From: Candidatus Sumerlaeia bacterium
GTDB lineage: Bacteria > Sumerlaeota > Sumerlaeia > SLMS01 > JAHLLQ01
DNA: 64,000 nt
Direction of reading: 5' to 3'
Assembly: GCA_028284075.1 (NCBI GenBank)
Contig: JANQSL010000053.1
Location: 4,316-68,315, forward strand
The position numbers and the translations under genes were made by a program. The notes beneath the pieces are model-generated. The model was not told where the DNA came from. It saw only the letters and a program-made list of their open reading frames with translations, and made no database searches. Within the stretch, counting starts at the first letter, position 1, and each line of letters begins with the position of its first letter. Below are positions 4,188 to 55,000 of the stretch, piece by piece.

Positions 4188-5732
4188 ATGGGTGGTTCGC
4201 TTGACCGAACAGCTTCATCGGCATCAGAATTGAACGAAGCAACCGCTGACTCACCGGCCAAGAAGGGAAACACTGTCGGTGGTTACGTTATTGGGTCGCC
4301 AGCGCGCTCAGATCGCTTTTTCTACAAGTACAAGGGCTCCCACGCTTCAACGAGAACTTCTGTTTTTATCAAATTGCTACGGACCGAGTGCATCGGGACG
4401 GACTCTGAGTTCGGCAAGGAATTCAACAGGGTTTTGCACCGGTTGAGTTCGCTCAGTCACCCGGGTCTATTGCCGGTTCTGGACAGTGGAACTTTCGGCG
4501 ATCAGTATTATGTCATCGAGCCTGCCATCGATGGGTTTGCCTTGGCTCTTGGTCTGGAAAACGATCACTTTCTCGATGAAGACAAGATCAGAATTTTTCG
4601 TCAGCTTTCTGACGCAGTGGAAGGACTCCATTCGGAAGGTGTGGTTTATGGCGACCTTCATCCGAATGCGATTTTTATCACAACGGATGATTCGGTTCGT
4701 TGTGGCGGATATGGCATTTCACCTCTGATCGATTCGATCGGACAGTCTCCGGCCCGTTTGAATGAAGAGCATCGAAGATTCTGTGCTCCCGAGGTTTTGG
4801 CTGGTGAGCATGCCACTGTCCGATCTGATGTGTTTTCACTGACTGCTCTCTTTGCCTGTTTGCTTTTAGGCAAGGAGGCCTGGGACAAGTCGGACAGCCA
4901 TCTGTCTCAGATTATTCTCGTGCCGGATGTTCTCGAGTGCCTGAAGAAGGGAATGGCCCGGTCGCCGGAAGACAGATACGCGAGCGTCAGCGAGTTCTCG
5001 ACGGCTTTTTTTCAAAGATACACCAAGCACACATCAGTCGTTGTGCCGGACGATCCCACAACAAGACATCACGTTGAAGAAAACGAGAAGCCGGGACTGA
5101 ACAAGAAGGCCGCTTTGATTCAGGGAACAGCGCTCTTCCTCGGCGCAGCCGCTATTTTGGCCGGAGTTGTGGTTGTTCGCGAAAAGAAAATTGAGGAAGC
5201 GAAACGCGCACGGGCAGAGGCTGAACCCGCTCCAATCGCTGAACCGACCATGCCTCCTCAGTTTGACGTACCTGAGGAGAGGCCCACTCCGACACCGGTC
5301 CCAACGGCTACTCCGACCCCGACCCCAACTCCCGTAATGGCTACGCCGACCCCCGCGGTTCCCGGGAGCACGAACGCCTGGCTGGCCAGAGTGGATGAAT
5401 GGCCGGGGCACTTTCGCATCGCAGTCGGAATGCCAGGGTCGGTTCCGTGGACGTACCCCGCGATCGTGGTTTTTGATGATCTCAAGCCAGCCACCCGCGA
5501 GGCCGTTTATAATCTCTATCGTTCCGTCGAAGGTGGACAGCTCTTGTCGGGTGTTGTTCGTATTGTCGATCTGCCTCAGGAGGCCAATTCGATTGAGTCT
5601 GATTACGAGATCACTCGACCCGAAATTCTGTTTATCGATCCATCGGGTAAAGTTCATGCACGCATGCCGGTGACAGTGGAAGGGGCACGCTTTAGCGATG
5701 CGCTGAAGTCGTTTGTCTCTTCATCCGATTAA
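4188..5732 (+). CDS. Membrane-spanning eukaryotic-like Ser/Thr protein kinase homolog, probable pseudokinase, with Pro-Thr linker and C-terminal extracytoplasmic TlpA-like thioredoxin-fold domain lacking CxxC
   Basis: Kinase-fold motifs: beta3 Lys (SVFIKLL), an alphaC segment ending in L-HPGL, YYVIEP hinge, catalytic loop YGDLHPNAIF (HRD Arg lost, catalytic-loop Lys replaced by His), no DFG (CGGYG in its place), APE plus SDVFSLTALF. One TM helix (ALFLGAAAILAGVVVV) follows. Then a PT-rich linker (PTPTPVPTATPTPTPTP). The C-terminal domain carries the thioredoxin-fold landmark RPEILFIDPSGKV (cf. TlpA TPTTFLIDRDGKI) but no Cys pair. GAGAG RBS precedes the ATG. Confidence 0.7.
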   Translation: MGGSLDRTASSASELNEATADSPAKKGNTVGGYVIGSPARSDRFFYKYKGSHASTRTSVFIKLLRTECIGTDSEFGKEFNRVLHRLSSLSHPGLLPVLDSGTFGDQYYVIEPAIDGFALALGLENDHFLDEDKIRIFRQLSDAVEGLHSEGVVYGDLHPNAIFITTDDSVRCGGYGISPLIDSIGQSPARLNEEHRRFCAPEVLAGEHATVRSDVFSLTALFACLLLGKEAWDKSDSHLSQIILVPDVLECLKKGMARSPEDRYASVSEFSTAFFQRYTKHTSVVVPDDPTTRHHVEENEKPGLNKKAALIQGTALFLGAAAILAGVVVVREKKIEEAKRARAEAEPAPIAEPTMPPQFDVPEERPTPTPVPTATPTPTPTPVMATPTPAVPGSTNAWLARVDEWPGHFRIAVGMPGSVPWTYPAIVVFDDLKPATREAVYNLYRSVEGGQLLSGVVRIVDLPQEANSIESDYEITRPEILFIDPSGKVHARMPVTVEGARFSDALKSFVSSSD

Positions 5733-5785
5733 GCCGAAGCCGAAAGCCAGCAGACCAGAAGCCGCCGTTTGGCAGCCACAGTCAC

Positions 5786-6964
5786 TTAGTCGAAGTACCG
5801 GGACAGGAAATCCTGAATTTCGTTCCATGTGGTGACTTGCGCGTCCACCTTGAGCCGACCTCGTTCGCTTCCATCGCGGGCGAGGACCACGAAGGACGGC
5901 AGTTTGGATACACCAAACTTCTGTGCGTTGCGCTTGCCGATAGCGTCACTGACGTCAAGTTTGAGGAGGGCGAACCGTTCGAATTCGCGGCGAGTAATTG
6001 CATTGCCGGGGATCGTCATTCTGAGGTGTTCGTGCCCCGAGGAGCTGGAATCCGTGAAAAGAATGAGACACTTGGTTGCACGGCGCTGAGTTTCCGCCCA
6101 GGCAGCCTCCGGGTCATCATGCCAGTAGAGTGGCCCATTTGTGTCGATGAGTGATATTTCGGGTTTGGCCTGTCGTGGTGGGGGAGCCGAAATCTCCCTC
6201 GGAGTCGATTCCACGGGCCGTGGGGTCACGGCATATGCGGTGTCCGCTTCCGGCAGTTCGTCTTCGTCGGTGAAAAGGAGCGCGAGGTTGTCAAGGACCA
6301 CTGGTTGAAGAATGTCTGTATGAGAAACCATGACTCCTCCCAGCAGGTTATCCAGAGTCCCTTCAAAGAGCGGGCAAAACGATGCGGATTGTCCGTTCAT
6401 GCCGGCAACGATTGTGTCGTCATCGTTCAACAGGAGCTGAAGGCGGTTCCATCCCGGCTTGTGGATTGGAAGCTCCATGGCAGGTTGAGTTTGGAAGAGA
6501 ATCGGTCCCGGTGTAACACCGTCGGAATAGGAAAAATAGAAAATGCTTCCTCTCTTGTCGAAACCCGCCCGGTACATGGCGTATGCACTGCCACCCTTTG
6601 GCGTTGCCATTACGGAGATATTGGGAACGGGCTGGTCGGCATCCGGGAGGAAGAAATCGACTTGAAGCAGTGCGGCGCCTCGAGAGTCAAGCTCGTCCCG
6701 CGTAAAGGTCTCCGGGAGAGTGAGGCTGAGATGCGGTGCCGCGGATGTCGGGAGAAGCTGGAGTCCTCCGTTGCCGTGGCCGGGTTGCATATTCCCGTCC
6801 AGATCGATTTCCTTTGCATTGGCGGGCGAGGCTCTATGCCCAAGACGCAGCCGCCCCATGGCACCTGGTTCCTCGAACGATTCCAGAATGTCAGCCTGGG
6901 CAAGGCCTCCCTCCACGAAAAGGAAGGCTGTCAAAAATAGTGCCATGAATCCTGCGGATTTCAT
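5786..6964 (-). CDS. Secreted two-domain protein: N-terminal beta-rich domain plus C-terminal cysteine-less thioredoxin-like (TlpA-like) domain; paralog A
   Basis: Signal peptide MKSAGFMALFLTAFLFVEGGLAQA. C-terminal domain AWAETQRRATKCLILFTDSSSSGHEHL...LPSFVVLARDGSERG (thioredoxin fold with the CxxC position occupied by SGHE). Paralogous to the adjacent gene 7060..8244. Confidence 0.6.
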   Translation of the reverse strand: MKSAGFMALFLTAFLFVEGGLAQADILESFEEPGAMGRLRLGHRASPANAKEIDLDGNMQPGHGNGGLQLLPTSAAPHLSLTLPETFTRDELDSRGAALLQVDFFLPDADQPVPNISVMATPKGGSAYAMYRAGFDKRGSIFYFSYSDGVTPGPILFQTQPAMELPIHKPGWNRLQLLLNDDDTIVAGMNGQSASFCPLFEGTLDNLLGGVMVSHTDILQPVVLDNLALLFTDEDELPEADTAYAVTPRPVESTPREISAPPPRQAKPEISLIDTNGPLYWHDDPEAAWAETQRRATKCLILFTDSSSSGHEHLRMTIPGNAITRREFERFALLKLDVSDAIGKRNAQKFGVSKLPSFVVLARDGSERGRLKVDAQVTTWNEIQDFLSRYFD

Positions 6965-7059
6965 CAGCTCCGTATTTCCTCCTGGGTAAGATGGTGCTGT
7001 CTGCTTGTCTGGCGGAGTGCCCTCGGAAGCACCCTTGCCGTCAACTTGATTCGGTGGAG

Positions 7060-8244
7060 CTACGCTCCTTTCAATCCTTCAAGAATTTGCTGCCATGTCA
7101 TATCGGAATCTTTTGCGACATGGACGTTATTCGTCATTTCGCCATCGAGTCCAATGACGGCGACTGCAGGGAAATCCGTTAGGTTGTAACGTTGTGCGAA
7201 GACCTGACCGGAACCGCTGTCGACATCAACACGAAGCGGCACGCATTGTGTCAGGACCGGTTTGATTTCGTCGACGTTGAGGATTCTGATGATGTTTTCG
7301 TTCGCGGCAAGATCGTCACCGTGAAACACGGCGAAGATCACCTTGTTGGCGTTACTGGCTTCTCTCCACGCCTCTGAGGGGCTTGTCGTCCATTCCATTC
7401 CGCCGATGTTCCAGCGATTTGCCTGAAGTCCTGAAAACGGAACGGAGAGAGAGCTTCTGACAAACCAGGGCGAACCGGGCGGGTCATCCGTCGCGTCTGG
7501 CGTCCAGAGAATTCCCAGATTATCCGCGTAGACGGCTCGGTCGCCTCCGTCTTTTGCACGTGTTACCATAACACCGGGTTCGAGTCTCACCAGTGTGCTT
7601 TCGGATATTGGAGAGAATGACGTGATTTGTCCGTCGATGGCACACAGGATTTCCTCCTGCCCTCTGAAAATGAGTTGAAGACGATGCCAGCCTGGCAAGG
7701 TAAGGTCGAATTCTGAAAGAGACTGGCGAAGATAGATGTCAGGAGATCCCTTCTGATTGGTGAAGGAGAAGTAAACACGGTCCCGGTCCACACCGAACCG
7801 ATAGAAGCGGTATGACTTCCGATCAGCCGAGCCGTCGCTGGCGTTGGCCAGGATTGCCATCGTCGGGTGAACGGCAATGTCTGCCGGAACATAGAAGTCG
7901 ACCTGGAAGAGGGCTGCGCCTTCAGCTCCAAGCTTTTGACGATTCAGGGATCGGCGGTCGAGAACACTGAGATGCGGATCGCTTTCGAGAGGTCGCAGCT
8001 CCAACCCGTAATTTCCAACGATGGCGCTTGAAGGGCCCTCATGAAGCAGGCTGCCATATTCGCTTACCCCCCATGCAATAGAGCGTGTGGTAAGCGGGCT
8101 GCTATGATGGCCGTGGACGAGGGTGTCGGGCCACTTTCCAAGGGTGTCTTCGAAGTGCTGCACGGCATACTGGCGGTATTGTGCAAGCACCGGGCTGGCG
8201 ATCAGCAGCAGCATGACCAGGCTGAATGCGATCCTAAGGAACAT
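7060..8244 (-). CDS. Secreted two-domain protein with C-terminal cysteine-less thioredoxin-like domain; paralog B
   Basis: Signal peptide MFLRIAFSLVMLLLIASPVLAQ. Blocks shared with paralog A: GAALFQVDFYVPADIA vs GAALLQVDFFLPDAD, and PGWHRLQLIF vs PGWNRLQLLL. C-terminal thioredoxin-like region SEAWREASNANKVIFAVFHGDDLAAN...FPAVAVIGLDGEM. Confidence 0.6.
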   Translation of the reverse strand: MFLRIAFSLVMLLLIASPVLAQYRQYAVQHFEDTLGKWPDTLVHGHHSSPLTTRSIAWGVSEYGSLLHEGPSSAIVGNYGLELRPLESDPHLSVLDRRSLNRQKLGAEGAALFQVDFYVPADIAVHPTMAILANASDGSADRKSYRFYRFGVDRDRVYFSFTNQKGSPDIYLRQSLSEFDLTLPGWHRLQLIFRGQEEILCAIDGQITSFSPISESTLVRLEPGVMVTRAKDGGDRAVYADNLGILWTPDATDDPPGSPWFVRSSLSVPFSGLQANRWNIGGMEWTTSPSEAWREASNANKVIFAVFHGDDLAANENIIRILNVDEIKPVLTQCVPLRVDVDSGSGQVFAQRYNLTDFPAVAVIGLDGEMTNNVHVAKDSDMTWQQILEGLKGA

Positions 8245-8375
8245 TTCTTTCTCCTGTCAGTCTCGTCAAAAGAGCGGTTTGTTGGATGGCACTGCTACCC
8301 GGGGTGAGCAATGAAATATACACGGTTTTTTTTAGTTTTGAGCATACTGGTGACACTGTGTTTTGATCCACGATA

Positions 8376-8408
8376 GAAAAAGGCACCCTCCGGACGGAGG
8401 GTGCCTTT
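8376..8408 (-). terminator. Rho-independent terminator downstream of the 8434..12087 gene
   Basis: Perfect 10-bp stem GGCACCCTCC / GGAGGGTGCC with a GGAC loop. It is flanked by A5 on the plus strand, which gives a U-run on the minus-strand transcript. Confidence 0.6.
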
Positions 8409-8433
8409 GAACTGAAGGCAGGGGTTTTCGCTT

Positions 8434-11400
8434 TTATTCGCAGGGAGCGAAGGTTGTGGAACTGACTCGGACCACGCGATTGCGGAAACGGATGAACGAT
8501 ATGTTTGTCAGTGTGTCCACGCCGTCGTTTCCAACAAGATCGGTGACGGTCAGCGACCCGTCGGCATTTTGGCAAATCGAGTAGTTCTGGATGTTGCTGT
8601 AGTAGATGACCTTGTCGCGGTCGGCAACCGGGCCGCCGATCAGAGTGTCATCGCCTTCTCCGCCGATGAGCGTGTCTCGTCCTTCGCCGCCGTCAAGGAT
8701 GTCGTTCCCCTGTCCACCGGCAAGGAGGTCTCTGCCGGCATAACCAAAGACCTGGTCGTCACCCTCGTCGCCATCGAGTAACAGATCAAAACTCGCGGTG
8801 CCGTGGATAATGTCGTTACCGGCTCCGCCAAGGATGGCTGTTGCGAATCCGACTGCATCAGCACCTCCGGCGTCCAGGATGTCGTTGCCGCCAAGACCGA
8901 AAATGACGTCGCCAAGACCCGGGTTCGCGGAAGGGGTTTCGCTTGCGCTAAGAATCACGTTGTCGGTTTCGGAACCGATGATGATGTCGCCGCCTTTTGC
9001 GCGGCCGATTACGTTTTCCACTCCGGAGATGATGTCGTAGCCAAGAGAATGGCCGATGGCTTCTCCATCGACGAGGCTGACAACCACTGGCCTGGTGAGA
9101 GCCGAGTAGTCGAGGGTATCGATGCCGTCACCCGCATCGATAATGTCGTCGCCACGTTCTGACTTCGGTCCCGGATCCGGAAGGATGCGGTCATTACCGC
9201 CACTGGCGATGATTTCGTCGTCACCGGCGCCGCCAACGATGAGTTCATCGCAGGCCGTGCCGATCAGGAGGTCATCTGATTCGGTTCCGATAATATCGAG
9301 ACCGTCGCAATCGACGACTTCAGCCTTCCAGGGTGTTTCGGGGAAGGTTGAAATACCGTCCCACGCAATGGCGAGGTCGTCGAAGTAGTCAAGAGGACCC
9401 ATGGCCGTGTGGTGGAAGGGAGACTGGCCTGAGAAACCGAGCTGACGCGAAATGTCGACCTGCGTCACGATATCCGTTCCGGCCCGGAAGGTGTCGAGGG
9501 CGACTCCGAGGAGGCGGTCGCCTGTGTAGGCGGCACGATGTTCTGCGGCTCGAGCCGTGAATTCAGATATGCTGGAAGTGTAGATCTGAGGAAGTACCGC
9601 ATCGACAACACGGTTGCTCATCCATGTTGGCCAGTCCTGATAGTTGAAGTTAATGGCGTCGTCAAAGCGTCCGATGGGGAACGCAAGCAAGAGGGCGTCG
9701 GGATCGAGCCCGGTGATGGTTGAGTAGATGAGCTGCATTGCAGCGGTGTTTTGTTCACGACGGAACTGTTGCCAGTCGAGATCGAAGGGATCCGGAATTT
9801 CGGTCTTGCCCGTGAGGCGGTTGAATTCCGCGATCACGTCGGGATGGTATCCAAAGTCGCCCTCGGTCCGGTCGAAACGTGTGTCCGGGTAGCGCTGACG
9901 ATCAATGAAGATACCGTCGATGTCATAGTTCATTACGATGTCCGCGCAAATGTTGGCGTTGTAGAGGCGAACTTCAGGAAGTCCCGGGTCGAGCCAGATG
10001 CCGTCAGGATCCTCAGCGGTATTTTGAACCACGGGGTTTCCGTTGTTCCACTCGTAGGTGATCCATTCCGGATGAAGGTTGATGACGTGATTCGGGCGTG
10101 CGTCGGTATCAGCCCCGTCCGTGACAAGGTTTGTGTTCACGTAAGCAAAGACCTTCAGGCCTGCGGCGTGACCACGGGTGACGAATTCATGAAGGACGTC
10201 CACATCGCCAGCGAGAGGATTACGTGGCTCATCGTTCGGGAATGTTGCGTCGGTTTTGTTGGGGAAGTAGGTGGCGTCGCCGCGGTAACGCGTGTGGACA
10301 GCGATGGCGTTGTAACGCCTGCGGGCGGCGTCATTGACGTAGCTTTGGATTGTGCCAACGTCGTCGATACCAGGGTCAAAGACGAGGAAGACGGCGACGC
10401 GCATTTCAGGATCGTCAATCGGGGGCGGTCCGGGAAGCTCGCGGATTCGAACGGCATCCGCCAGAACCACGCGTCCCGCGGGCTCGCTTGCAGCCGCGTC
10501 CAGGGTGATGTTGAAGGGGCCGGCGTCGAGTTGATATTCACCAAGGACAACCCACGTCAGGTTATTGATGCGCTGGTCAGTGGTCGCGACGACAGTGCCG
10601 TCGGTTGTGGAGATTTCATAAGTCGCAACGGCAGCACGGTTGGAACCGGAACGATACTGAACGGCAACTTCGTAGAAGCCGCTCTCGGGAATATTGCCGG
10701 TCCACGTTGCCGTGTTCGGGAACTGTGTGGCGGCAAACTGATCGGTACCTCCATTGAAGCCAGGGGTGCCGCTGGTGGTCCAGCTGCCGGTGGTCGTGTA
10801 AACGGCGGGGCCGTCGTCATTGTCGAGGACAAGTTCGAAGGGAGGAGGTTCGACTTCGATGCCGCGGAGAACGATTGAGTCCACGGTCATGAAACTGCCA
10901 CTCCAGAGCGCGGAGTTGCTTCCCCACGTTCCACTCTCCACATCTGTTGAGAGGGCGATGAGGAGATCATCGCCAGCTGAGGCCACGAAGTTGCCCGTAA
11001 TCACCGTTTGAGTGTCGTTGGCCGTATCGTCACCGGGTGTAAGGCCAATGTAGGTGCCTGTCGTGGTCAGGCCGGGAAGGTTGCCGGCCGCGTCGCGGTG
11101 AACAGCTTCAGCTCCCGTCGCGACTCCGACCGAGTAGGCTCGAATGCCGTCCGGGTTTCCTGCGCTTTCGTCGACGTCCATGTTGATTTCGACCCGGTAG
11201 GTGCCATCGCCGGGGACAACGCCTTCATAGATGGCATAAACACCGTTGCCGAATCCGCCGTCGGTAATCCGCATTGCCGTGCTTCCGTCCAGCGTTGATG
11301 CACTTGGCGTCCCGAAGGTCGACGGTGTTGTGTCATACCAGGTGTTGAAATCCCCGCTGTTGGGGCTGTTGACGGCCACCACGCCACCGTCGAAGTTGTC

Positions 11401-12087
11401 GACGATGATTTCATCCGTGGGGGGAGGAGGTGCGACGTCTTTCAGCGTAATGTTGTCGACGAGCACAAAATTCCCGGACCACGTGGATGAACCGGCGTTC
11501 CAGCCGCCGGTCTGTACGTCGGTCCCAAGACCGATGAGAATGCTGTCACCAGCCTGTGCGCTGAATGTACCCGTCGTCAGGGTTTCAGTCGGGTTTGCGG
11601 TATCATCGCCGGCGGTAAGGCCGGAGTAGTTTGCCACGATAGAGAGCGGAGCCACGGCACTGGGATTGAGGCCGCGATGAACCGCGTCCGCTCCCACGGC
11701 CACGCCGACCTGGTATGCACTGAAGCCTGTCGGAGAACCGGACTCATCGACATCCATGTCGAGTTCGATCTGATAATCCCCGTCGGCGGGGACTACTCCG
11801 TCATAGATAATGTAAACACCATTCGTGAAACCACCGTCATCGATTCTCATCGCCGCGCTCCCCTCAAGGGTGGACGCCGATGGAGTTCCGAAGGTTGAGT
11901 TCGATGCATCATACCAGACGCCTGGTACACCAGATCCCTCAGGGTGGTTGACAGCTGTCACACCACCACTGAAGTCATCCAGCACCACGTCGGCTGAGAC
12001 AACGGACGCAACCAAGGCGAGGGTTCCGCTCACGAGGTTTCGTACGACTCTCCGTGTTGCCGCACATCGTGAAACGAAGTTCCGCAT
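8434..12087 (-). CDS. Very large secreted multidomain protein: two tandem-duplicated beta-sandwich (CBM-like) domains, a third beta domain, a GHL10/UPF0748 (YddW-like) glycoside-hydrolase-like core, and C-terminal hemolysin-type (RTX) Ca-binding repeats
   Basis: 1217 aa with a signal peptide. Two roughly 185-aa repeats share about 60% identity (GGVTAVNHPEGSG...FGTPSASTLEGSAAMRIDDGGFTNGVY vs GGVVAVNSPNSGD...FGTPSASTLDGSTAMRITDGGFGNGVY). Middle region MRVAVFLVFDPGID...KVFAYVNTNLV...DGIFIDRQRYP resembles the GHL10 TIM-barrel family. Repeated GGxGxDxx nonapeptides near the C-terminus (GGAGDDEII, GGAGNDIIHG, GGQGNDILDGGEGRDTLIGGEGDDTLIGG). Confidence 0.75.
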   Translation of the reverse strand: MRNFVSRCAATRRVVRNLVSGTLALVASVVSADVVLDDFSGGVTAVNHPEGSGVPGVWYDASNSTFGTPSASTLEGSAAMRIDDGGFTNGVYIIYDGVVPADGDYQIELDMDVDESGSPTGFSAYQVGVAVGADAVHRGLNPSAVAPLSIVANYSGLTAGDDTANPTETLTTGTFSAQAGDSILIGLGTDVQTGGWNAGSSTWSGNFVLVDNITLKDVAPPPPTDEIIVDNFDGGVVAVNSPNSGDFNTWYDTTPSTFGTPSASTLDGSTAMRITDGGFGNGVYAIYEGVVPGDGTYRVEINMDVDESAGNPDGIRAYSVGVATGAEAVHRDAAGNLPGLTTTGTYIGLTPGDDTANDTQTVITGNFVASAGDDLLIALSTDVESGTWGSNSALWSGSFMTVDSIVLRGIEVEPPPFELVLDNDDGPAVYTTTGSWTTSGTPGFNGGTDQFAATQFPNTATWTGNIPESGFYEVAVQYRSGSNRAAVATYEISTTDGTVVATTDQRINNLTWVVLGEYQLDAGPFNITLDAAASEPAGRVVLADAVRIRELPGPPPIDDPEMRVAVFLVFDPGIDDVGTIQSYVNDAARRRYNAIAVHTRYRGDATYFPNKTDATFPNDEPRNPLAGDVDVLHEFVTRGHAAGLKVFAYVNTNLVTDGADTDARPNHVINLHPEWITYEWNNGNPVVQNTAEDPDGIWLDPGLPEVRLYNANICADIVMNYDIDGIFIDRQRYPDTRFDRTEGDFGYHPDVIAEFNRLTGKTEIPDPFDLDWQQFRREQNTAAMQLIYSTITGLDPDALLLAFPIGRFDDAINFNYQDWPTWMSNRVVDAVLPQIYTSSISEFTARAAEHRAAYTGDRLLGVALDTFRAGTDIVTQVDISRQLGFSGQSPFHHTAMGPLDYFDDLAIAWDGISTFPETPWKAEVVDCDGLDIIGTESDDLLIGTACDELIVGGAGDDEIIASGGNDRILPDPGPKSERGDDIIDAGDGIDTLDYSALTRPVVVSLVDGEAIGHSLGYDIISGVENVIGRAKGGDIIIGSETDNVILSASETPSANPGLGDVIFGLGGNDILDAGGADAVGFATAILGGAGNDIIHGTASFDLLLDGDEGDDQVFGYAGRDLLAGGQGNDILDGGEGRDTLIGGEGDDTLIGGPVADRDKVIYYSNIQNYSICQNADGSLTVTDLVGNDGVDTLTNISFIRFRNRVVRVSSTTFAPCE

Positions 12088-12639
12088 GGGTTCCGTCTCC
12101 TTTGCAAAGTATATCCTGCGAGATTTACCCGCGTACTATTTTCGAAGAGAATCAGGATGGCAAGAAAATTAGTCTTAAAATGATGTCAGGTTCCCTTTAT
12201 CACAAAAAAACCCCGGGAAAGGGCATTGTTTTGAACAATTCCCTCATGCTGCGCTTTTGGAGGGGGGGGTGTTTTTATTTCCAAATACCGACGTCCGGAA
12301 TTCGCGCCGATAAATTACCTGTATATGTTGGTGATTTTTGTTAAACTAAAAATATTTGAAATATTAGATGGGCTAAAGTCTGCATCATCAGTGGGTTGAG
12401 TGATCAGTGGGTTTTTGAAAACCAGCGTTTATACCTTAATGCAAGATGCGGGTATTGGATTGCTCGTTATCAATGTGTTTGACCGGTATTTCTGTTGTGA
12501 ATAATTGATTTAAAATGAATTAGATATGTTTTGTTAATCTTTTCCGAACCCTTCTTTTGGAGCTGGTCTGTCCTTCTCTCTTGGCCTGTAGGCTGGATTG
12601 AAATTACGCTTCCGGCATCAATCAATCCAAGGATTGCAC
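12088..12639. promoter_or_regulatory. AT-rich divergent intergenic island between the giant RTX/GHL10 gene and the small Ca-repeat gene; probable shared promoter and regulatory region
   Basis: About 550 bp with GC far below the window average. Contains direct repeats ATCAGTGGGTT x2 and AATATT-tga-AATATT, a TTGACC(N17)TAATTG-like element about 130 bp upstream of the 12640 start, and a G8 homopolymer. Confidence 0.4.
12262..12269. repeat. Homopolymeric G8 tract in the intergenic region, about 175 bp upstream of the start of the 8434..12087 gene
   Basis: Sequence reads ...gcgcttttggaGGGGGGGGtgtttttatt.... Coordinates are hand-indexed and may be off by 1 nt. Confidence 0.8.
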
Positions 12640-13884
12640 ATGCGATTTCGCACTTTTTTTGTTCTCCCATTCCTGGGAATTCACTTAGGACTCCCGGCAG
12701 CCCTAACAGTCGAGTTTGTCAATAATCAGCTCACTGTTACCTCGGACACGGATTCGGATACCATTACACTGACGGAGGCGGGCGGCCAATTGCTGCTGAA
12801 CGGCGGCAATCCTGGCGGGATACCGATTACCGCAGCGGATGTCACGCGTATTGAAGTGGAGGGCGGTGAAGGAAACGACACAATTGATGTGAGTGCGCTG
12901 GATGAAACTTCAGGTTTGGTTTCCCTGTTCAACATCACTCTGAACGGCGGTTCCGGCAGTGATGAGATTACAGGTTCCGCACTTGGCAACAGCATCAGTG
13001 GAGGCCCGGGCGACGACACGCTTTCCGGGGGATCGGAAGGAGACGGTTTTTCATGGAACCGGGGTGATGGTGCGGACATGATCGATGCAGGGGGTGGGAG
13101 CGACTCGTTTGGTGCAAACGCGCTGACGGATGCCGCGCAGTTCGCGTTTCTCAAGGACGGCGGGGATGTTCTTCTACAGAGCAATGAAGGGGGCGTGGTG
13201 GAAACGAGAATTGCGGGTGTCGAGACGCTCAACCTTGGGGACGGTCCGGGCGATGACATGTTTGTCGTGGGCGACCTGGAGGGGACCGGAGTGACGCGCG
13301 TCTTGATGAACCTCGGTGAGGGGATGAACGTGGTTGATGCATCCGATCATGGAGGAGAGATTCTCTGTTCCCATATGATCAGCAGCGGATCGCTTCAATT
13401 TACAGGTGCGGCTGGTGCATTTCACACCGTTCAGATTAATAACGCTTTCACGAACGACCCACTGGAAAGATCCGTAACGAACGATTCCGGTTTTGTTCGG
13501 ATCGACACTGAGGGGCCGGATGTCAAGACAGTGCGTTGTCGTGATGTCAGTGCGGCAATCGTTCGTCTCCAGAATGGAGATGATGTTGTTACGGTTTCCG
13601 ATCTTGGTGACGATACGGGTGTGACCCGCCTGACCGTTTTTGGGGACGACGGCGATGATTCGGTGACCACTCGGCCTCAGGCGATTACGTTGCAGGACCT
13701 GCGGGGAGAGGGTGAGGATTCCGTCGATACTCTGGTGATTGATATGCAGAACATGTTCTTTGAGGATGACGGGTTCACGATTACACCGCTCGGTCAGGCG
13801 GACATTCTCTACAGTGGCTGGGAGTCGATGGATATTCAAAACCTGCCGCCCCCGGGTGATCAGTGGGCGGTTACAGGGAACTGA
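12640..13884 (+). CDS. Secreted hemolysin-type Ca-binding repeat protein (about 415 aa)
   Basis: Start taken at internal M (MRFRTFFVLPFLGIHLGLPAALT signal peptide). GGxGxD-type repeats: GGSGSDEITG, GGPGDDTLSGG, GGGSDSFG. Asp/Gly-rich throughout. Confidence 0.6.
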   Translation: MRFRTFFVLPFLGIHLGLPAALTVEFVNNQLTVTSDTDSDTITLTEAGGQLLLNGGNPGGIPITAADVTRIEVEGGEGNDTIDVSALDETSGLVSLFNITLNGGSGSDEITGSALGNSISGGPGDDTLSGGSEGDGFSWNRGDGADMIDAGGGSDSFGANALTDAAQFAFLKDGGDVLLQSNEGGVVETRIAGVETLNLGDGPGDDMFVVGDLEGTGVTRVLMNLGEGMNVVDASDHGGEILCSHMISSGSLQFTGAAGAFHTVQINNAFTNDPLERSVTNDSGFVRIDTEGPDVKTVRCRDVSAAIVRLQNGDDVVTVSDLGDDTGVTRLTVFGDDGDDSVTTRPQAITLQDLRGEGEDSVDTLVIDMQNMFFEDDGFTITPLGQADILYSGWESMDIQNLPPPGDQWAVTGN

Positions 13885-20594: not shown

Positions 20595-22862
20595 ATGACA
20601 ACCTGCCGGTTCACGATTCTGGCGATTCTGTTGAACGCTGCCGCGTTCGCTCAAGATTCCATCGATTTTCGCCTCGACGGTCCACATATGCTGGAAGCTC
20701 ACCGCCGTGCCGCAAACCTGATTGCAGCGGATTTGAATTCCGACGGTCTCGTGGATCTGTGTGCGATTTCCAACGATGAAGCGCTGCTGGACGTGTGGTA
20801 TCGTCTCAAGAAGGCGGATGATGAAGAGAAGCTCTGGAGGCTGGAGGAGTACACGCTGGACCGGACGGTGCTGGACGTTGTCGCAATGGATGAGAATGGG
20901 GACGGTCTGACAGACCTGGTGATGGCGGTGGCAGGCTCGGAGCTTGCCGTAATGCGGCAAACGGACAAGGGACGTCTTCAGAAGGCGCCGGATGTGGCGA
21001 TACGTGGAGAGCGCCTTGTCGCAGGAGATCTGACAGGTGACGGGAGAGAGGATTTGCTTGTCGTTGAAGGGAAAAAGTTTTCAGTTCTGGAGGGGTCGGA
21101 CGAGGGGCTTGGTTCGGAAGCGAGCCTTGTTTTCTTCGCTGCCAATGCTCCAACATCAGACCCGCAGGTGCTTGATCTGAACGGAGACGGTCAAAACGAC
21201 CTGATGTACCTGACGGCTGAGACTCGGGAAGGTGTTGCTGTTCGCATTCAGGGGGAAGACGGGGGATTCCCCGTTGAGTTGAATCTGAGGACGGGCGGGC
21301 TACGCTACGCGACTGCCATTGCCCGGTCCGGAGGCAGCGACGCTGTGGCTACCATCAGTGCCGCAACGCGTCAGTTGGTTGTTCACACACTCGCTGGAAG
21401 TGGCGGAAATGGAGAGCGATGGCATCCATCGATTCCCAGTGCCGTGGCTTTTGATCCGGATCGCTGGGATGAGGAAACGAGATCCACGGTTGCCGACGTG
21501 GATGGAGACGGAAAGATGGATATCGTTGCGACAGTTCCGGAATCGGCGGTTCTGAGAATACTTCTGCAGACATCTTCCGGAACGCTGAAGCCGGTTGATG
21601 TTCCGTCCTTGAAGGACATTCGGCAGGTTCTGGCATGGCCCGCGAATTTCGGAAAGCCGTCGCCACTGATCATTTTGAGCGGAGACGAGAAGGTCGTTGG
21701 CGTTTCCACGCACAACAGGAATCGTCCCGACGAGTTTCTCCCCTTTCCGTCTCCTGTTTCCGTGGAGGGGGAGCCGCTGGCAATTGTGGGGGTAGGTTCG
21801 GAGGGCAACTCCGGTCTGGAGCTTCTGATTGCGGAGAAAGGGACGGAGGGCCCGGTGACTCTGAACCGGTATTCATCCTTCAATCCCGCCGAAGCGGAAG
21901 CGGGTGATGGCATGGCAGTCTGGACCTTCGAGGAGAGCCGGGAGGAACCGCAGGCCATGCAGGCGGCGGACATCAATCGCGACGGCCTCGACGATGTGTT
22001 CGTTTTCTTCGAGTATGATCGTCCTCTGGTGTTGTTGCAGAGTGAAGACGGAAAGTTCGAGGCTGCCCGCAACGTGGGGCTGATCGACGGCATGCTGGAT
22101 GGAGCCACTCCTGCACGCCTAGGAAGTGCCCGTCTTGATGACCGGGAAGGCTGGAACGTTTTTGTTGTGAAGAGCGACTTTGTCAGGACGTTTCATCTCG
22201 ATGCCGATGGTTCACCTGAAATTGGCACACAGCTGAACGCTCCAACAGGACGTTCACGCTTCCGTTCCGTGGCGGCAGGGCGTTTCCGTGATGATAAAGT
22301 GGACGTTGCCGTTCTCGACGGACAAGGGCCCGCTCTGCATGTTTTCGGGAGAGACGGATCGTCGGGCGTTTATGAGTTGCTCGAAACCGTGGAGCTTGTG
22401 GCTGCGGACTATCAAGGCCTGCATGCACTTGATCTTGAAGGCGATGGCCGGGACGATTTGGTGGCTGTGGCGCCTGATCGCGCAATTATCGTGCGTGGAA
22501 GTCAGTCTGGTGAGACTCTTGAGTCGGTGGTAACGCATCGGACAGACATTGAAGATGGTGGCTACGGAGCACTTCACCGTATTGACCTGATCGGTGATTC
22601 GGCGGAAGAGCTGATTGCTTTGGAGATGAAAGAAAATCGTCTCGAATTCATGAGTGTCGATGATGTCTCGGGGAACGGGACGGAGCTGAATCTGTTCTAT
22701 CACTTTCGCGTGTTCGACAGTGAGTCTTCCATCGCGCGGCGAGTGAATCTGGATGCCCCGCCGGAGCCGCGAGAGATTTATGCCGCGGATCTGAACGGTG
22801 ACGGCAGGAAGGATATCGCCGCTCTGGTTCATGACTTCGTCATTGTTTACCATCAGCGGTAA
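20595..22862 (+). CDS. Secreted FG-GAP/VCBS-repeat (beta-propeller) protein
   Basis: Signal peptide. Recurrent Ca-binding-loop-like repeats ADLNSDGLVDL, DENGDGLTDLVMA, DLNGDGQNDLMY, DVDGDGKMDIVA, DINRDGLDDVFV, DLEGDGRDDLVAV, ADLNGDGRKDIAAL. Confidence 0.7.
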   Translation: MTTCRFTILAILLNAAAFAQDSIDFRLDGPHMLEAHRRAANLIAADLNSDGLVDLCAISNDEALLDVWYRLKKADDEEKLWRLEEYTLDRTVLDVVAMDENGDGLTDLVMAVAGSELAVMRQTDKGRLQKAPDVAIRGERLVAGDLTGDGREDLLVVEGKKFSVLEGSDEGLGSEASLVFFAANAPTSDPQVLDLNGDGQNDLMYLTAETREGVAVRIQGEDGGFPVELNLRTGGLRYATAIARSGGSDAVATISAATRQLVVHTLAGSGGNGERWHPSIPSAVAFDPDRWDEETRSTVADVDGDGKMDIVATVPESAVLRILLQTSSGTLKPVDVPSLKDIRQVLAWPANFGKPSPLIILSGDEKVVGVSTHNRNRPDEFLPFPSPVSVEGEPLAIVGVGSEGNSGLELLIAEKGTEGPVTLNRYSSFNPAEAEAGDGMAVWTFEESREEPQAMQAADINRDGLDDVFVFFEYDRPLVLLQSEDGKFEAARNVGLIDGMLDGATPARLGSARLDDREGWNVFVVKSDFVRTFHLDADGSPEIGTQLNAPTGRSRFRSVAAGRFRDDKVDVAVLDGQGPALHVFGRDGSSGVYELLETVELVAADYQGLHALDLEGDGRDDLVAVAPDRAIIVRGSQSGETLESVVTHRTDIEDGGYGALHRIDLIGDSAEELIALEMKENRLEFMSVDDVSGNGTELNLFYHFRVFDSESSIARRVNLDAPPEPREIYAADLNGDGRKDIAALVHDFVIVYHQR

Positions 22863-27762: not shown

Positions 27763-28885
27763 GTTGCGATCTTTGTTTCCGGCCTCTTTTTTTGTGTCGC
27801 TTGTATGTGCCGCGATGGCGCAGCCGTTTCTGCCGCCGATGCCGACACATGACGGTATGACCGTTGTTTCGCGTTATCAACCCGCTGATGCCGAAGGCGA
27901 GCGGGTACAAGAGATGCTGAGCGCTGCGGCAGGGTCCGGTTCTTTTGAAGGTGCTGTTCGTGTTGTTCGCGAATCGAGCCTTCCGGTCATTGCAAGGGAG
28001 CGTGCGTTGCTGGCGCTTGTTCTCGTGTCGGGTGCATCGGGAACGAGCGAAGACCTGCCCACGCTTGTGGAGCTTGCAGCGGAAAAGCCACAGGCACACT
28101 TCATGGCGCCACTTTGCAAGCAGGATCATGCCCATGTCTATTTCCCGTATGATGCGGAAGCGGGTCGATCGGCGTTTGCCATTCGTGCACGAACGGCGAT
28201 GGAGCGTGTGGCGAATACTGAGGATGTGGCAGGTGTTTTTGCTGAAATCCTCAATGGAGAGCAGGAGGAGGGCATACTTTATGGCACCTGTCTTCAATGG
28301 TTAATGGATGGCGGAGATGTCCGCCTCTTTTTGCATGGAGACGCGGAAAAAGAGGGTTCTCTTCGGTATACCGAAATTCTGCTGGCCGCCAGAGATGCCG
28401 AGTCTGCCGACGCGCTGCTCGCCCTGGGACAAACGGAAAAAGCTCCTCAGTCCGTGCGACTGAACGCGTTTGTGCTTTGGAACGGGATGGAGAGCAAGCC
28501 GGCGGCACGAGCGAACTTCTTTGACGAGGCATTGTTGAACCAGGAGCCGTGGGTGCGCTCCGTTTCGCTGGGATTTTTGGCAACCGACGATGTGACACCC
28601 GCAGTGATTCAGAGGTTGGTGAATCTGCTGGGCGATGAAGACGCCGGGGCCGACGCGGCTCTCGCGATTCTCAGGCTGGCTCCGGAGGACGCCGTACGAA
28701 TCGCCAATGACGTTCTCTCTTCAAAGAGCGCGAAAAGCACGGAAGTCAGAAGAGCAATTTTGCTGCTGCTGCGAAGTGAGTCTGGCGAGGCCAGGGCGGT
28801 GTTGAGCGAATGGGCCGTGCGCAAGAATGACGGTGATTCGTTTGCGGCGATGCGGGAGGAGGTCGTGCGATGGATCGAAGAGTAG
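27731..28885 (+). CDS. Secreted HEAT/ARM-like repeat protein (hypothetical)
   Basis: Signal peptide (FPASFFVSLVCAAMAQ). All-helical, with repeated Ala/Leu-rich pairs and PBS-lyase-HEAT-like segments (EVRRAILLLLRSESGEARAVL). No catalytic motif recognised. Confidence 0.5.
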   Translation: MSIWMKGDLFKLRSLFPASFFVSLVCAAMAQPFLPPMPTHDGMTVVSRYQPADAEGERVQEMLSAAAGSGSFEGAVRVVRESSLPVIARERALLALVLVSGASGTSEDLPTLVELAAEKPQAHFMAPLCKQDHAHVYFPYDAEAGRSAFAIRARTAMERVANTEDVAGVFAEILNGEQEEGILYGTCLQWLMDGGDVRLFLHGDAEKEGSLRYTEILLAARDAESADALLALGQTEKAPQSVRLNAFVLWNGMESKPAARANFFDEALLNQEPWVRSVSLGFLATDDVTPAVIQRLVNLLGDEDAGADAALAILRLAPEDAVRIANDVLSSKSAKSTEVRRAILLLLRSESGEARAVLSEWAVRKNDGDSFAAMREEVVRWIEE

Positions 28886-30591
28886 CTGCAACGGCCGGAA
28901 CGGTTTTTCTTGTCTGTGCTCTTCACGCAGGCGTGACGACATATCCACCAACGGTTGGAAGCCCGGCCTATCCCGTGCCGCAGCCCGTGATGTCAACGAC
29001 GCCAGTCGAGGGCTTTCGTCTGCGTGCGTCTCTCGACACGCGACTGATGGATCTGGCGCTTGCGAACGATTTCATTACGCGGAGTCAGATCGGATCGACA
29101 CTCTATGATGAACCGATCCACGCCTTTGTTCTGACAGACGCCGACAATACGTCTCCTGACGGGACGCGAGAAGGCGGCGTCATGATCAATGGAACCATTC
29201 ATGCCCGTGAATGGGGGTCGCCGGAGATCGTGACGCAGCTGCTTGAACACTTCGCGATGAACTATGGTACGGATCCGATTGCAACGTATCTTGTGGATAC
29301 TCATCGGATACTTCTCATTCCGGTTCTCAATGTGGATGGTTTCGATCAGACGCAGATTCACTTTAACATGGACGATGGCGGAAGAGATGGCCGCATGCGT
29401 CGTAAAAACATGCGTGGCGAACAGGCGAGCCTCGTGGATTTTGATTTGACAACCGGGGGAGACAATTCACTGGGCGTGGACCTGAACCGTAATTTTCCCG
29501 TTGGATTCGGAGTCGGTTCCAGTGGAAACCCGACCTCTATCACCTATCGTGGAGAAAGCGCCTTCAGTGAGATCGAGTCTCAGGCGTTGCAGAGTGCGAC
29601 ATCGCTGTTTACATCCACCCTTCAGCTTCGTTTCTATGCCGATGTCCACGGTGCCATTCCGGGGCTGTATGTCGTTTATCACGGAACAACCGCAGCTGAT
29701 GATGCGACTGAGGTGTTGGCGAATCGAATGCAGAGCACCTATGAAACGATCAATGGAGTGGACGGCAGCTATGGATTGATTCCGGTGTTTCCCGGAGGTG
29801 AAATCGGCGCGACGGATGAATACCACGGCAACACATTCAACATTCCCAGTTTTACGATCGAGTATCCGACTCCGAACTATCGAGAGGGCGGTAGCGGACC
29901 GACGTTTGTTTTGCCCAACGACGAAGTCGACGAAGTTGTTGAAGAAAACCGGGAAGCGATCATGCTTGGATTCATGTTTGCCTCCGGTCCACCTGTTCTT
30001 GAGCGCTTTCTTGTCTGGCATGATGAGAACGCGGACGAGGATGTGCAATCCGGCGAGATTGTATACGATTCCACCTGGCAGGGGAATGGGTCAGGATCCG
30101 ATTTCCGCTCACTGCAGCTGTCTGCGTCCGACCCGCTTGAAACTGACCGGACATATCAGGTTCTGATGCAGTTCAACAAACCGATGCGACGGGATTCCAA
30201 CGGCAACCCCGGACCCTGGCCCGGAGTTCCGATTACCCTCCAGCCCACAATGCAGGTGAGAGACGGCATCAGCACAGTCGTCGCCACGGCAGTACCGACG
30301 GGTAGCGGGTGGCTGTCGACACAGATGTCGGGAGAAACGCCCGGCTACGCGAGATATGAATACGATTCGTGGCTGGGCAGCTTCGATCTGACCGGAGTGT
30401 CGCCGACGGACGAGGGCCTGTACGTCATCTCCGTCGAGGACCTCTACGGACACACTTTGGACGAGAATCCGCAGACAGTCACGGACTGGGACGACGGCTG
30501 GCAGGGTTACGATATGTCCTTCGGCGGCGACAGAACGCACGGTCTCGAAATCAAGCAGGCAGCGAGCCTGGACGAATGGCTGATTTACTAA
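28870..30591 (+). CDS. Secreted M14 zinc carboxypeptidase with about 200-aa C-terminal extension
   Basis: Signal peptide. M14 motifs HAREWGSPE (HxxE), NVDGF, DLNRNF. The C-terminal domain is unassigned. Confidence 0.75.
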   Translation: MDRRVAATAGTVFLVCALHAGVTTYPPTVGSPAYPVPQPVMSTTPVEGFRLRASLDTRLMDLALANDFITRSQIGSTLYDEPIHAFVLTDADNTSPDGTREGGVMINGTIHAREWGSPEIVTQLLEHFAMNYGTDPIATYLVDTHRILLIPVLNVDGFDQTQIHFNMDDGGRDGRMRRKNMRGEQASLVDFDLTTGGDNSLGVDLNRNFPVGFGVGSSGNPTSITYRGESAFSEIESQALQSATSLFTSTLQLRFYADVHGAIPGLYVVYHGTTAADDATEVLANRMQSTYETINGVDGSYGLIPVFPGGEIGATDEYHGNTFNIPSFTIEYPTPNYREGGSGPTFVLPNDEVDEVVEENREAIMLGFMFASGPPVLERFLVWHDENADEDVQSGEIVYDSTWQGNGSGSDFRSLQLSASDPLETDRTYQVLMQFNKPMRRDSNGNPGPWPGVPITLQPTMQVRDGISTVVATAVPTGSGWLSTQMSGETPGYARYEYDSWLGSFDLTGVSPTDEGLYVISVEDLYGHTLDENPQTVTDWDDGWQGYDMSFGGDRTHGLEIKQAASLDEWLIY

Positions 30592-52020: not shown

Positions 52021-55000
52021 CTACTCCGGCGGAGGACCATCAACAGCGTGTTGCCGGCTTTCCCGCATTCCCGGCGCTCCGTGACATTCCTTGAATTTTT
52101 TGCCGCTCCCGCAGGGACAGGGATCGTTTCGTCCGACCTTCGGCATGTCTCTGCGGAAGGTTGAGAGGTCTTTCCTGGGTTTCCGAGGTTTGCTGTCAGC
52201 CCGCTGCTGTTGAACCTGTCCGTCAGGGCCGACAAGGCCCTGTTCTCTCGCGGATTCCATTTGCTGCTGGCGCGCCGCAGAGGCCGCGGCAGCCTTTTGC
52301 ATCATCGCTTTGCGGGCCTCCTCCGCGCGACGTTCTTCTTCTGTCACAACCTGTGCCCGGAAGTAGCGATCAAAGATTTCCTTTTGGACTGTCAGGAGCG
52401 TTTCGTTGAACATCGTCGTTGCATCGGCAGTGAACTCGATGAGTGGGTCCTTTTGTCCATAGCCGCGGAGGCCGATGCCTTCGCGCAGGCTGTCGATGGC
52501 CAGAAGATGGTCCTGCCATTCACCATCGAGAGTGCGTAATGAGATGTAGCGGGAGAGTGCGTTGTTCATTTCATTGCCGATTTGACTGCGCTTTTCCTCG
52601 AAGGCATCCACGATGAACTGCATCGTTTGTTCGACGAGAGCATCGAAGTCCTCGAACTTCTGGCCGCGCAACTCAGTGAGGTCCGCCATGAAAAGCACGC
52701 GCGCGATCCAGTCGAAGAATCCGTCCAGATCCCATGTTGTCTGGTTCTTCGGGTCACCGTAAGTCAGGCGGAACTCGCCCTCGATCGCGTCCGCAAAGAC
52801 GTCGAGCATGACATCCGTCAGATCCTCATCGACAAGCAATTCGCGGCGGAGGCGGTAGATGGTAACGCGTTGCTTGTTCATGACGTCATCGTATTCGAGC
52901 GTGCGCTTGCGGCGCTCCTGATTGATGCCCTCGACTTTCTTCTGTGCGTTGCCGATGGCCTTGGTGACCATGGGATATGTGATAGCTTCCCCTTCCTGGA
53001 GACCCAGGCGGGTCATCCAGGTCGAGATTCGCTCACTACCGAACCAGCGCATCAGGTCGTCTTCGAGTGACAGGAAGAAGCGGCTGGAACCGGGATCCCC
53101 CTGACGCCCGGCCCGGCCTCGAAGCTGACGATCGATACGGCGGCTCTCGTGGCGCTCGGTGCCGATGATCTGGAGACCACCGATCCACTCATCGCCGGAC
53201 TCGGGGTCCTTGTGCGGCTCGTTCACGCCGGGGCCGAGCTTGATGTCCGTGCCACGGCCAGCCATGTTTGTCGCGATCGTGATCGCTCCAGACTCTCCCG
53301 CCATGCGCACGATTTCCGCTTCCCGTCCGTGGTTCTTTGCGTTCAGAACCTGGTGTGGAAGCTTCTTGGCTCTCAACATGCGCGATACCGTTTCCGAAAC
53401 GGCAACAGAGGTTGTGCCCACCAGGATCGGCAGTTTCATGGCGTAAAGGCGTTCGATCTCATCGATGACGGCTTTGTATTTCTCACGCTTTGTTTTGTAA
53501 ATAACGTCATCCAGATCGTTCCGCTCGGTCGGAACGTTCGACGGAACAACGACGACGTCCATCTTGTAAGTGTGCTGGAACTCCGCTGCCTCAGTTTCCG
53601 CGGTTCCCGTCATGCCGGAGAGTTTCTTGTACATCCGGAAGTAGTTCTGAATGGTGATCGTGGCGAGCGTCTGTGTTTCCTTCTCAATCTTCAACCCCTC
53701 CTTCGCTTCGACCGCACCGTGGAGGCCGTCGCTCCAGCGGCGCCCCGCCATCTTTCGGCCGGTGTTCTCGTCGACGATGACAACTTTGCCTTCCTCGACA
53801 ACGTAGTCCACGTCCCGTTGCTTCATGACGAAGGCGTGCAGGAGCTGGCTGATCGAGTGAATCTGCTCCGCTTTTTGTTCGTAGGTTTCCCGGATTGCAA
53901 GCTTCTCCTTGTCACGGTCTTCCGGTTTGAGATCAATGCGCTGGTCCACTTGAGCCAGCTCATCCACAAGATCCGGGAGAACAAACTGCGAGGGATCATC
54001 CGGCGAAAGACCGTCCCTTCCCTTGTCTGTCAGGTCGATTGATCGGTTGCGTTCCTCGACTACAAAGAAGAGGTCCGCTTCCATCTCCGGGATTTTCTTT
54101 TCCAGCATCAGCTCGCGTTCTGCCTTGTCTCGCAGCTTCTGCAGTTTAGGCTCCTCGATCAGCTTCATGTAGCGGTTGTGCTTCGGCATGCCTTTATGGC
54201 ATTGAAGAAGTTTGACACCTGCCTCGATATCGTCCGGATCCTTCTCCAGCATGTCAGTCACCTCCTTGACGAGACGGCTGACAAGCATTTGCTGTTTGTT
54301 CACAATATCGCGAATCGCCGGAACCAGTTGTTCGTATTGGGTGTTTGATCGATCAACAGGACCTGCAATAATCAGAGGTGTCCGGGCTTCGTCGATCAGG
54401 ACTGAGTCAACCTCGTCAATGATGGCAAAACTGTGAACGCGTTGCACCAGTCCGGCTTTGTCCAGCGCCATGTTGTCACGCAGGTAATCGAAACCGAATT
54501 CGTTGTTTGTGCCGTAGGTGATGTCCATCTGGTACATCGTCCGGCGTTCCTGTGTGCCGGGCTGAGTCTTGTCCAGGCAACCCACGGAAAGTCCGAGAAA
54601 CATGAAGATTGGAGCATTCCATTCACTGTCTCGGCGAGCCAGGTAGTCGTTTACAGTGACCAGGTGTGACCCTTTTGCCGTGAGACCGTTCATATAAAGC
54701 GGGAAGATTGCCGTCAGAGTCTTGCCCTCACCGGTGGCCATTTCAGCAATGTTTCCACGGTGCAAAGCCAGGCCGCCGGCGAGCTGAACGTCGAAGGGGA
54801 CCATGTTCCATTCCACCTCGATTCCCGCTGCGATCCATTTTTTCCCACAGTGGCGCCGGCATGATTCCTTCACGGCAGCGAAGGCTTCCGGCAGCAGATC
54901 GTCGAGTTCGACGGGTGGGTCTTCGTGTCCCGGAAGGGTGGAGACAAGTTCCTGGACGCTTGTGACTTTCCAGTCAGGCAAATCGCCAAGTTCAATGATT

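Follow-up and report, generated by a model that had tools for sequence, protein, structure and literature searches.

Within a 64,000-nt stretch of a Candidatus Sumerlaeia genome (contig JANQSL010000053.1; hereafter the window, by which we mean this stretch at its full length), the open reading frame (ORF) at 8434..12087 of the minus strand has an ATG start and codes for a protein of 1217 aa. We favour, with moderate confidence, the view that this protein is a Sec-exported, glycan-cleaving enzyme, and that its C-terminal calcium-binding tail helps in folding or docking rather than acting as a signal for a type I secretion system (T1SS). Domains were called with Pfam at its gathering thresholds, with NCBIfam models alongside, and the architecture comprises, from the N- to the C-terminus, a signal peptide, two jelly-roll copies, a Golvesin_C domain, a GHL10 barrel and an RTX beta-roll tail. 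The ORF and the Pfam hits bear out the multi-domain protein, and the order of its domains, described in an earlier reading made from the DNA letters (the sequence-only reading), and both the GHL10 and the hemolysin-type calcium-binding assignments proposed there score above the gathering thresholds. An identical protein is present in a public collection (P0001), and because the same architecture recurs in independent assemblies (P0002–P0006, 60–71% identical), it is not the product of a chimeric assembly.

The GHL10-type (beta/alpha)8 barrel occupies residues 555–925 (9313..10425, minus strand). The Pfam GHL10 model (PF02638) matches residues 581–848 with 102.7 bits against a threshold of 27.9 (E 2.7e-29), and the orthologues match it too. 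The AlphaFold2 (AF2) model of residues 555–925 has a mean predicted local distance difference test (pLDDT) score of 95.3 and shows eight beta/alpha units, and among its Foldseek matches that to Cwp19 ranks first (GHL10 domain, 5oq2/5oq3; template modelling (TM) score 0.72–0.78, ~20% identity, E 2e-22). The next structural neighbours are PgaB GH153 and GH156 (TM 0.6–0.7, E ~1e-10); since the C-terminal domain of PgaB and the GH156 sialidase are only 9–15% identical to the barrel, with no family match at the sequence level, they guide us only to the location of the active site. The GHL10 family, which the sequence-only reading called poorly characterised, proves better known than that: Cwp19, whose structure is solved, is a peptidoglycan lytic transglycosylase (PMC6016235), and YddW of Escherichia coli is DigH, a divisome-localised glycosyl hydrolase acting in daughter-cell separation and septal peptidoglycan processing, for which a 2025 paper gives no catalytic-residue information. 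Starch, furthermore, has been reported as a substrate of DogH, a GHL10 protein of Deinococcus (PMC9967864).

With Cwp19, the window protein shares the (beta/alpha)8 barrel, the Pfam GHL10 assignment, an NYDIDG…D…YP segment, PQ(I/L)Y, a predicted signal peptide and C-terminal repeats for wall or surface binding (CWB2 in Cwp19), whereas the accessory modules are entirely different. DigH, a lipoprotein in E. coli, belongs to the same Pfam family, and relatives of the window protein of ~815 aa are likewise lipoproteins; however, DigH has FDDYFY and AWFNPYR and lacks both CBM-like (carbohydrate-binding module-like) domains and an RTX tail, while the window protein lacks a lipobox and has a predicted type I signal peptide. 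Homologues are labelled 'family 10 glycosylhydrolase' at NCBI and 'lipoprotein YddW (UPF0748)' at JGI, and neither label fits the subfamily, because the model of the GH10 xylanases (Glyco_hydro_10) does not match (GHL10 and a sub-threshold GHL6 were the only matches) and the canonical YddW/DigH motifs are missing. The wording used at NCBI seems to go back to the name GHL10.

Cwp19, DigH and the canonical members from Planctomycetota and Bacteroidota share the motifs DGVHFDDYFYP, HAWFNPYR, QVRP and GVSPxGxW, all four of which are replaced in the subfamily of the window protein, where their counterparts read DGIFIDRQRYP, FAYVNTNLVT, HTRYRGD and AFPIGRF; in general form, the subfamily has DRxRYP in place of FDDYFYP and AYVNTxLVT in place of AWFNPYR. 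The structure paper on Cwp19 proposed D196 and R132 as key residues, with Q77, W127, Q295 and Y297 (PMC5765458). In our alignment, D729 corresponds to the buried D195 of Cwp19, R730 to D196, L654 to R132 and H598 to Q77, with PQIY kept. The catalytic Asp/Glu residues to which the sequence-only reading had pointed are therefore only partly in place: the first Asp of the motif is retained as D729, but Arg for D196 and Leu for R132 make the site non-canonical. No variation is seen at D729, R730 and R732 in 46 homologues, all 24 genome loci have the DR.RY core, and L654 is likewise invariant across the subfamily. Intermediate GHL10 proteins (24–39% identical) mostly carry LDY[VI]RYP, a few of them DH or DR variants, so that the first Asp of the motif is kept in every GHL10 branch compared and the residue that follows it depends on the branch. 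D729, at the end of strand beta4, is the best candidate for the catalytic residue.

The predicted catalytic face, read from strand positions, includes D571, R600, R602, D604, Y649, N651, D729, R730, R732, R807, D810, Q834, Y836 and H893, all of which sit at or just past the C-terminal strand ends of the AF2 barrel model; by sequence position, five invariant Arg residues lie at these ends. We infer that the barrel may hold a live, Arg-rich active site of a different type. As the canonical motifs are replaced, neither the mechanism nor the peptidoglycan specificity of Cwp19 and DigH would be transferable to it. An invariant Arg where Cwp19 and DigH have Asp, together with the five strand-end Arg residues, makes a glycan that is acidic or different in some other way the probable substrate, and peptidoglycan should not be assumed. 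On sequence grounds, the barrel belongs to a separate GHL10 subfamily of Sumerlaeota and Myxococcota.

The N-terminus (residues 1–32, MRNFVSRCAATRRVVRNLVSGTLALVASVVSA/DV; 11992..12087, minus strand) looks, by inspection, like a signal peptide, in which a basic n-region is followed by a hydrophobic core (residues 17–31) and a small-x-small site at VSA/DV. A corresponding N-terminal signal, ending right before a conserved DVVLDDF, is found in all relatives of this architecture, and no twin-arginine motif is conserved in the N-termini of the relatives. The N-terminal Sec signal that had been proposed thus holds up as a signal-peptide-like segment conserved in the orthologues. No member of the ABC transporter, HlyD or TolC families was found in any plausible ORF of the 64-kb window, nor were T1SS genes detected within ~7–10 kb of the orthologues at four loci (L001, L002, L003 and L033). 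The lack of adjacent T1SS genes, on which the sequence-only reading had leaned, consequently extends to the whole window, but it is weak as a sole argument, since T1SS components can be unlinked from their substrates (PMC3034196). A literature search on the secretion systems of Sumerlaeota returned nothing useful.

The tail (residues 926–1217) consists of an RTX beta-roll region (residues 926–1155; 8623..9312, minus strand) and a C-terminal cap (residues 1156–1217 plus the stop codon; 8434..8622, minus strand; …DGSLTVTDLVGNDGVDTLTNISFIRF…APCE). HemolysinCabind reaches 51.6 bits against a threshold of 23 in the whole protein, and matches six stretches of the tail when the latter is searched by itself (E 5.9e-19). 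The repeats form two blocks, separated by the RTX-typical linker DYS…V.L…G.D….(I/V)ENV.G, and include five strict GGxGxD units (at residues 952, 1087, 1124, 1133 and 1142) besides degenerate ones. Compared with PDB, the tail profile matches the RTX blocks of CyaA (E 2.6e-20), RTX lipases and AlgE R-modules, the last of which are a precedent for RTX modules on glycan enzymes; with NCBIfam, the protein gave only sub-threshold matches, to the RTX_toxin, PueAB, serralysin and EglC models. The conserved cap, …DG.DTL.NI…F…, is present in all tail-bearing relatives. These include the proteins at L009 and L033, which have short repeat blocks and score below and barely above the HemolysinCabind threshold, respectively. 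In the L009 protein (5169-9404 of that locus, from the metagenome-assembled genome (MAG) RI_26), where the repeat block is much shortened, a pAdhesive_15 domain of 250 aa (E 1.6e-54), putatively an ice-binding-like adhesive, is inserted between the two jelly-roll copies, which hints at an adhesive or surface role of the clade.

The tail contains four cysteines, of which C927 and C946 are kept in all six close orthologues and C1172 and C1216 in five. In the remaining one, P0003 (L003, 10001-13762), the equivalents of both C1172 and C1216 are lost and the C927/C946 pair is kept; such joint loss is the pattern expected of a disulfide pair, and we regard the conservation as consistent with C927/C946 and C1172/C1216 forming disulfides. 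AlgE mannuronan C5-epimerases (through their R-modules), serralysins and family I.3 lipases have the same layout of a catalytic domain followed by GGxGxD blocks and a cap, but they lack an N-terminal signal peptide and use dedicated exporters made of an ABC transporter, a membrane fusion protein (MFP) and an outer-membrane protein, unlike the window protein with its conserved signal-peptide-like N-terminus, its tail cysteine pairs and no T1SS genes nearby.

The closest relatives are encoded in MAGs of Sumerlaeota (BRC1), the nearest being P0002 (a Sumerlaeia MAG, locus L006), which is 71% identical overall and 80% in the GHL10 domain. A scan for the family pattern, with one genome per species, returned 27 loci; almost all of them belong to Sumerlaeota or Myxococcota, and a single genome often has several. 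The combination of GHL10 with RTX repeats is limited to ~8 proteins in the databases searched. Accessory modules vary widely between the 27 loci, from a barrel followed by a C-terminal Golvesin_C domain (~510–660 aa) through the many lipoproteins of ~815 aa to proteins of up to 2529 aa. The ~815-aa relatives start with a lipobox (…L-x-G-C…), as does DigH, and end in a different domain of ~100 aa with conserved cysteines. Since relatives carry lipoboxes, the family would be Sec-routed by ancestry, and in the tail-bearing clade a type I signal peptide seems to have taken the place of the lipobox, and the RTX tail that of the C-terminal domain. With a signal peptide kept across orthologues, lipoproteins among the relatives and cysteine pairs in the tail, the proposal that the tail is something other than a T1SS signal, already made by the sequence-only reading, appears to be the better view.

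Not mentioned in that reading, a conserved gene lies directly downstream of the GHL10 gene and on the same strand (7060..8244, minus strand). This partner gene encodes a 394-aa protein with a signal peptide (by sequence), a beta-rich domain, for which no homologue was detected, and a C-terminal CxxC-less thioredoxin fold (PDB profile match to 2kuc, E 2e-5, with weak Thioredoxin_7 and Thioredoxin_2 matches). It accompanies the tail-bearing gene in six of six loci (the window, L001/L006, L002/L007, L003/L004, L009 and L033), at a spacing of 127–250 bp, and is absent beside the tail-less paralogues and beside P0007. The latter protein has the N-domain duplication and a Big_1 C-terminus, without a tail, so the partner tracks the tail and cap and not the duplication. 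The partner family comprises 14 members in 5.8 billion clusters, and the two most distant of those examined have no adjoining GHL10 gene. A scan for promoters and terminators yielded counts equal to those of shuffled sequences and says nothing about an operon.

Further downstream in the window lies a paralogue of the partner gene (5786..6964, minus strand; 392 aa, 28% identical to the partner, E 2e-35), which also has a signal-like N-terminus; the other loci examined have a single copy at that position. A Ser/Thr kinase gene (4188-5732, plus strand) encodes one transmembrane segment (at about residues 309–330) and an ectodomain that weakly resembles the partner's CxxC-less thioredoxin fold (hhalign probability 49%). 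Kinases are found near family members in six loci, although a full-length orthologue of this kinase is present, adjoining the gene pair, only in L006, that of the closest relative, and four other loci match in the kinase domains alone; we therefore set aside a functional link to the kinase.

Upstream of the barrel, the protein carries three beta-sandwich modules. The first two are copies of one rare, unclassified domain with a predicted jelly-roll fold, N1 (residues 33–222; 11422..11991, minus strand) and N2 (residues 223–417; 10837..11421, minus strand), and a direct comparison of residues 34–222 with residues 225–417 yields 58% identity over 193 columns (E 3e-71), in agreement with the tandem duplication of about 60% over ~185 aa that had been noted earlier. 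The duplication is seen when the two segments are compared directly, the self-BLAST of the whole protein having returned the identity match alone. Neither copy matches Pfam at E <= 1 or NCBIfam at E <= 0.01. The AF2 model of N2, built with 48 sequences, is all-beta (pLDDT 92.7), and Foldseek against PDB places it with CBM4, CBM6, CBM16, CBM22 and CBM35 jelly rolls (TM ~0.40–0.49, E ~1e-5). The CBM-like fold claimed before gains support from these matches, albeit at TM scores of only ~0.45, and 'CBM-like fold' would be a fair label for both copies, whereas membership in a CBM family stays unsupported. A profile of N1 and N2 recovers 85 proteins among 1.84 billion cluster representatives; these include stand-alone secreted forms of ~220 aa, and the large ones are mostly without any Pfam domain.

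The duplication is an old one. Across orthologues, N1 copies are 66–83% identical to each other and N2 copies 62–81%, compared with 52–67% for N1–N2 pairs overall and 55–67% for those inside one orthologue; as N1s are closer to each other than to the N2 of the same protein, the duplication predates the RTX-tailed clade. Likewise, blastn finds no similarity between the N1 and N2 DNA, which excludes both a recent repeat and an assembly artefact. N2 is the copy that aligns with the single jelly-roll copy of the ~815-aa relatives.

The module listed in the sequence-only reading simply as a third beta domain is present and can now be named: residues 420–549 (10441..10830, minus strand) are a Golvesin_C domain of CBM6/35/36-like kind (Pfam PF25275; 88.7 bits against a threshold of 31.6, E 4.4e-25). 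The Golvesin_C family profile aligns to residues 887–1038 of the Paenibacillus xanthan lyase 6f2p (E 7e-12), and a lectin study grouped golvesin and xanthan lyase in CBM6-CBM35-CBM36_like_2 (PMC9166713). The C-terminal domain of 6f2p and the Bacteroides lectins Cbeg4 and Cbeg5 are of the same kind as residues 420–549, but in the window protein, unlike in these, the domain stands between a novel pair of jelly rolls and a GHL10 barrel. Planctomycete proteins combine Golvesin_C with Amidase_3 and fn3 in one chain.

Taken together, these observations are compatible with the following scheme. A cleavable type I signal peptide would direct the protein into Sec export, with no involvement of a T1SS. 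Once outside, the three beta-sandwich modules, judged at the level of the fold, may hold the enzyme on a polysaccharide, and the Cwp19-like TIM barrel, the fold of which is well matched, could cut the glycan outside the cytoplasm. The RTX beta-roll, with its ~10 nonapeptides, putative disulfides and cap, would fold when it meets calcium beyond the cytoplasm. In evolutionary terms, ancestral lipoproteins of ~815 aa may have given up their lipid anchor and C-terminal domain for the tail, with the latter taking over the anchor's role in retention. Most likely, the tail would thus, depending on calcium, stabilise the enzyme and dock it to the cell surface or to the secreted 394-aa partner, which is inherited along with it.

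Several points weigh against this scheme. At the positions of the putative catalytic residues of Cwp19 (D196 and R132), the barrel has Arg and Leu, which leaves its activity putative, and the geometry of the active site is predicted from strand positions. The signal peptide was assigned by inspection. The missing T1SS genes, sought in the 64-kb window and in the flanks of orthologues, are weak evidence when taken alone. Finally, docking of the tail to the partner is argued from gene adjacency, the two genes are 127–250 bp apart, and the promoter and terminator scan is uninformative. The RTX block and its cap are bona fide and match modules of CyaA, RTX lipases and AlgE, all of which come from T1SS substrates, and the protein, with an isoelectric point (pI) of 4.05, is very acidic, as many RTX proteins are. 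It could accordingly be a classical T1SS substrate, with the repeats and cap as its secretion signal, a T1SS encoded elsewhere (an arrangement known for other substrates) and an N-terminal stretch that is not a functional signal. We consider this improbable, given that the signal peptide has a consistent cleavage position in all orthologues, that the nearest tail-less relatives are routed through Sec as lipoproteins, that the tail holds conserved cysteine pairs, and that no ABC, MFP or TolC family was found in the 64 kb or beside the orthologues.

More serious, though still unlikely, is a role in cleaving the glycan strands of peptidoglycan, as Cwp19 and DigH do, for remodelling of the cell's own wall or for lysis of prey or competitors. 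The closest solved structure is that of a lytic transglycosylase, DigH takes part in septal peptidoglycan processing, the Amidase_3 to which planctomycete Golvesin_C is fused is a peptidoglycan amidase domain, and the family is concentrated, with several paralogues per genome, in Myxococcota and Sumerlaeota. However, FDDYFYP, AWFNPYR, QVRP and GVSPxGxW are all replaced, identity to Cwp19 is ~20%, Golvesin_C is also found on a xanthan lyase, and the reported action of DogH on starch indicates that GHL10 substrates are not uniform. As for the barrel having lost catalysis altogether, leaving a surface lectin or adhesin that adheres in a calcium-dependent way through barrel, beta-sandwich modules and RTX tail, we hold it to be a poor prospect: the Asp and Arg proposed as catalytic in Cwp19 are missing, the L009 protein has its pAdhesive_15 insertion and RTX tails are typical of adhesins, but Sumerlaeota and Myxococcota, with an overall identity of only ~55%, have ~75–100 barrel positions without any variation, many of them Asp, Arg or His at strand ends (all the catalytic-face residues listed above except Y649 are included) in the pattern typical of an active site, and the Asp common to all GHL10 branches is kept. 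Going beyond the Sec-exported glycan-cleaving enzyme that we favour, one may speculate, at long odds, that the DRxRYP branch (D729, R730 and R732 in the window protein) is a new enzyme class, with an Arg-rich site, in which Arg stands in for the acid of Cwp19 and PgaB, acting on an anionic polysaccharide by a different and possibly lyase-like chemistry, and that the tail and the partner form a T1SS-independent, calcium-dependent surface-docking pair that replaces the lipid anchor. Each kind of component is already known, and it is their combination that is uncommon; the barrel branch, with its altered active-site motifs, is uncharacterised, and two associated families, that of the duplicated jelly-roll domain and that of the partner, are very rare and unannotated.

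Some further features of the window touch on secretion. A divergent ORF upstream of the GHL10 gene (12598-13884, plus strand, with a probable start Met at 12637) encodes a secreted-looking protein with a pI of 4.05 and 0.7% Lys, whose RTX-like repeats are degenerate (HemolysinCabind E 0.006, NCBIfam RTX_toxin E 3e-6); the related loci showed no homologue of it. This second signal-bearing, RTX-like protein suggests that Sec-routed RTX modules are not unique to the GHL10 gene in this organism. SecA (52021-55512, minus strand) is unusually long at 1163 aa, its SecA_DEAD match spanning residues 202–646 for ~240 profile positions, with SecA_PP_bind at residues 471–602 inside that match. A T2SSE ATPase (42009-44702, plus strand; 897 aa) has an N-terminal extension of ~500 aa that starts with a signal-like segment. 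The predicted secreted proteins of the window are strongly acidic (pI 4.0–4.5) and almost Lys-free, as exemplified by the 1217-aa protein, the upstream RTX-like ORF, an M14 peptidase (28870-30591) and an FG-GAP protein (20595-22862). A halophilic lifestyle as the cause of this acidity was rejected, because the cytoplasmic proteins of the window have pI values of 5.3–7.1 and only the secreted ones are acidic and Lys-poor, which points to a bias of the exoproteome and not to a halophile.

For the family, these results mean that the labels 'YddW-like' and 'family 10 glycosylhydrolase' are not to be read as peptidoglycan or xylan activity. In Sumerlaeota (BRC1), an uncultured phylum with poorly known envelope biology, the protein would be a natural case of RTX repeats on a Sec-routed protein, and bears on the roles of RTX modules apart from type I secretion. 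The lipoprotein relatives show what the tail may have replaced, and the strict pairing of the partner with the tail offers a direct experimental handle.

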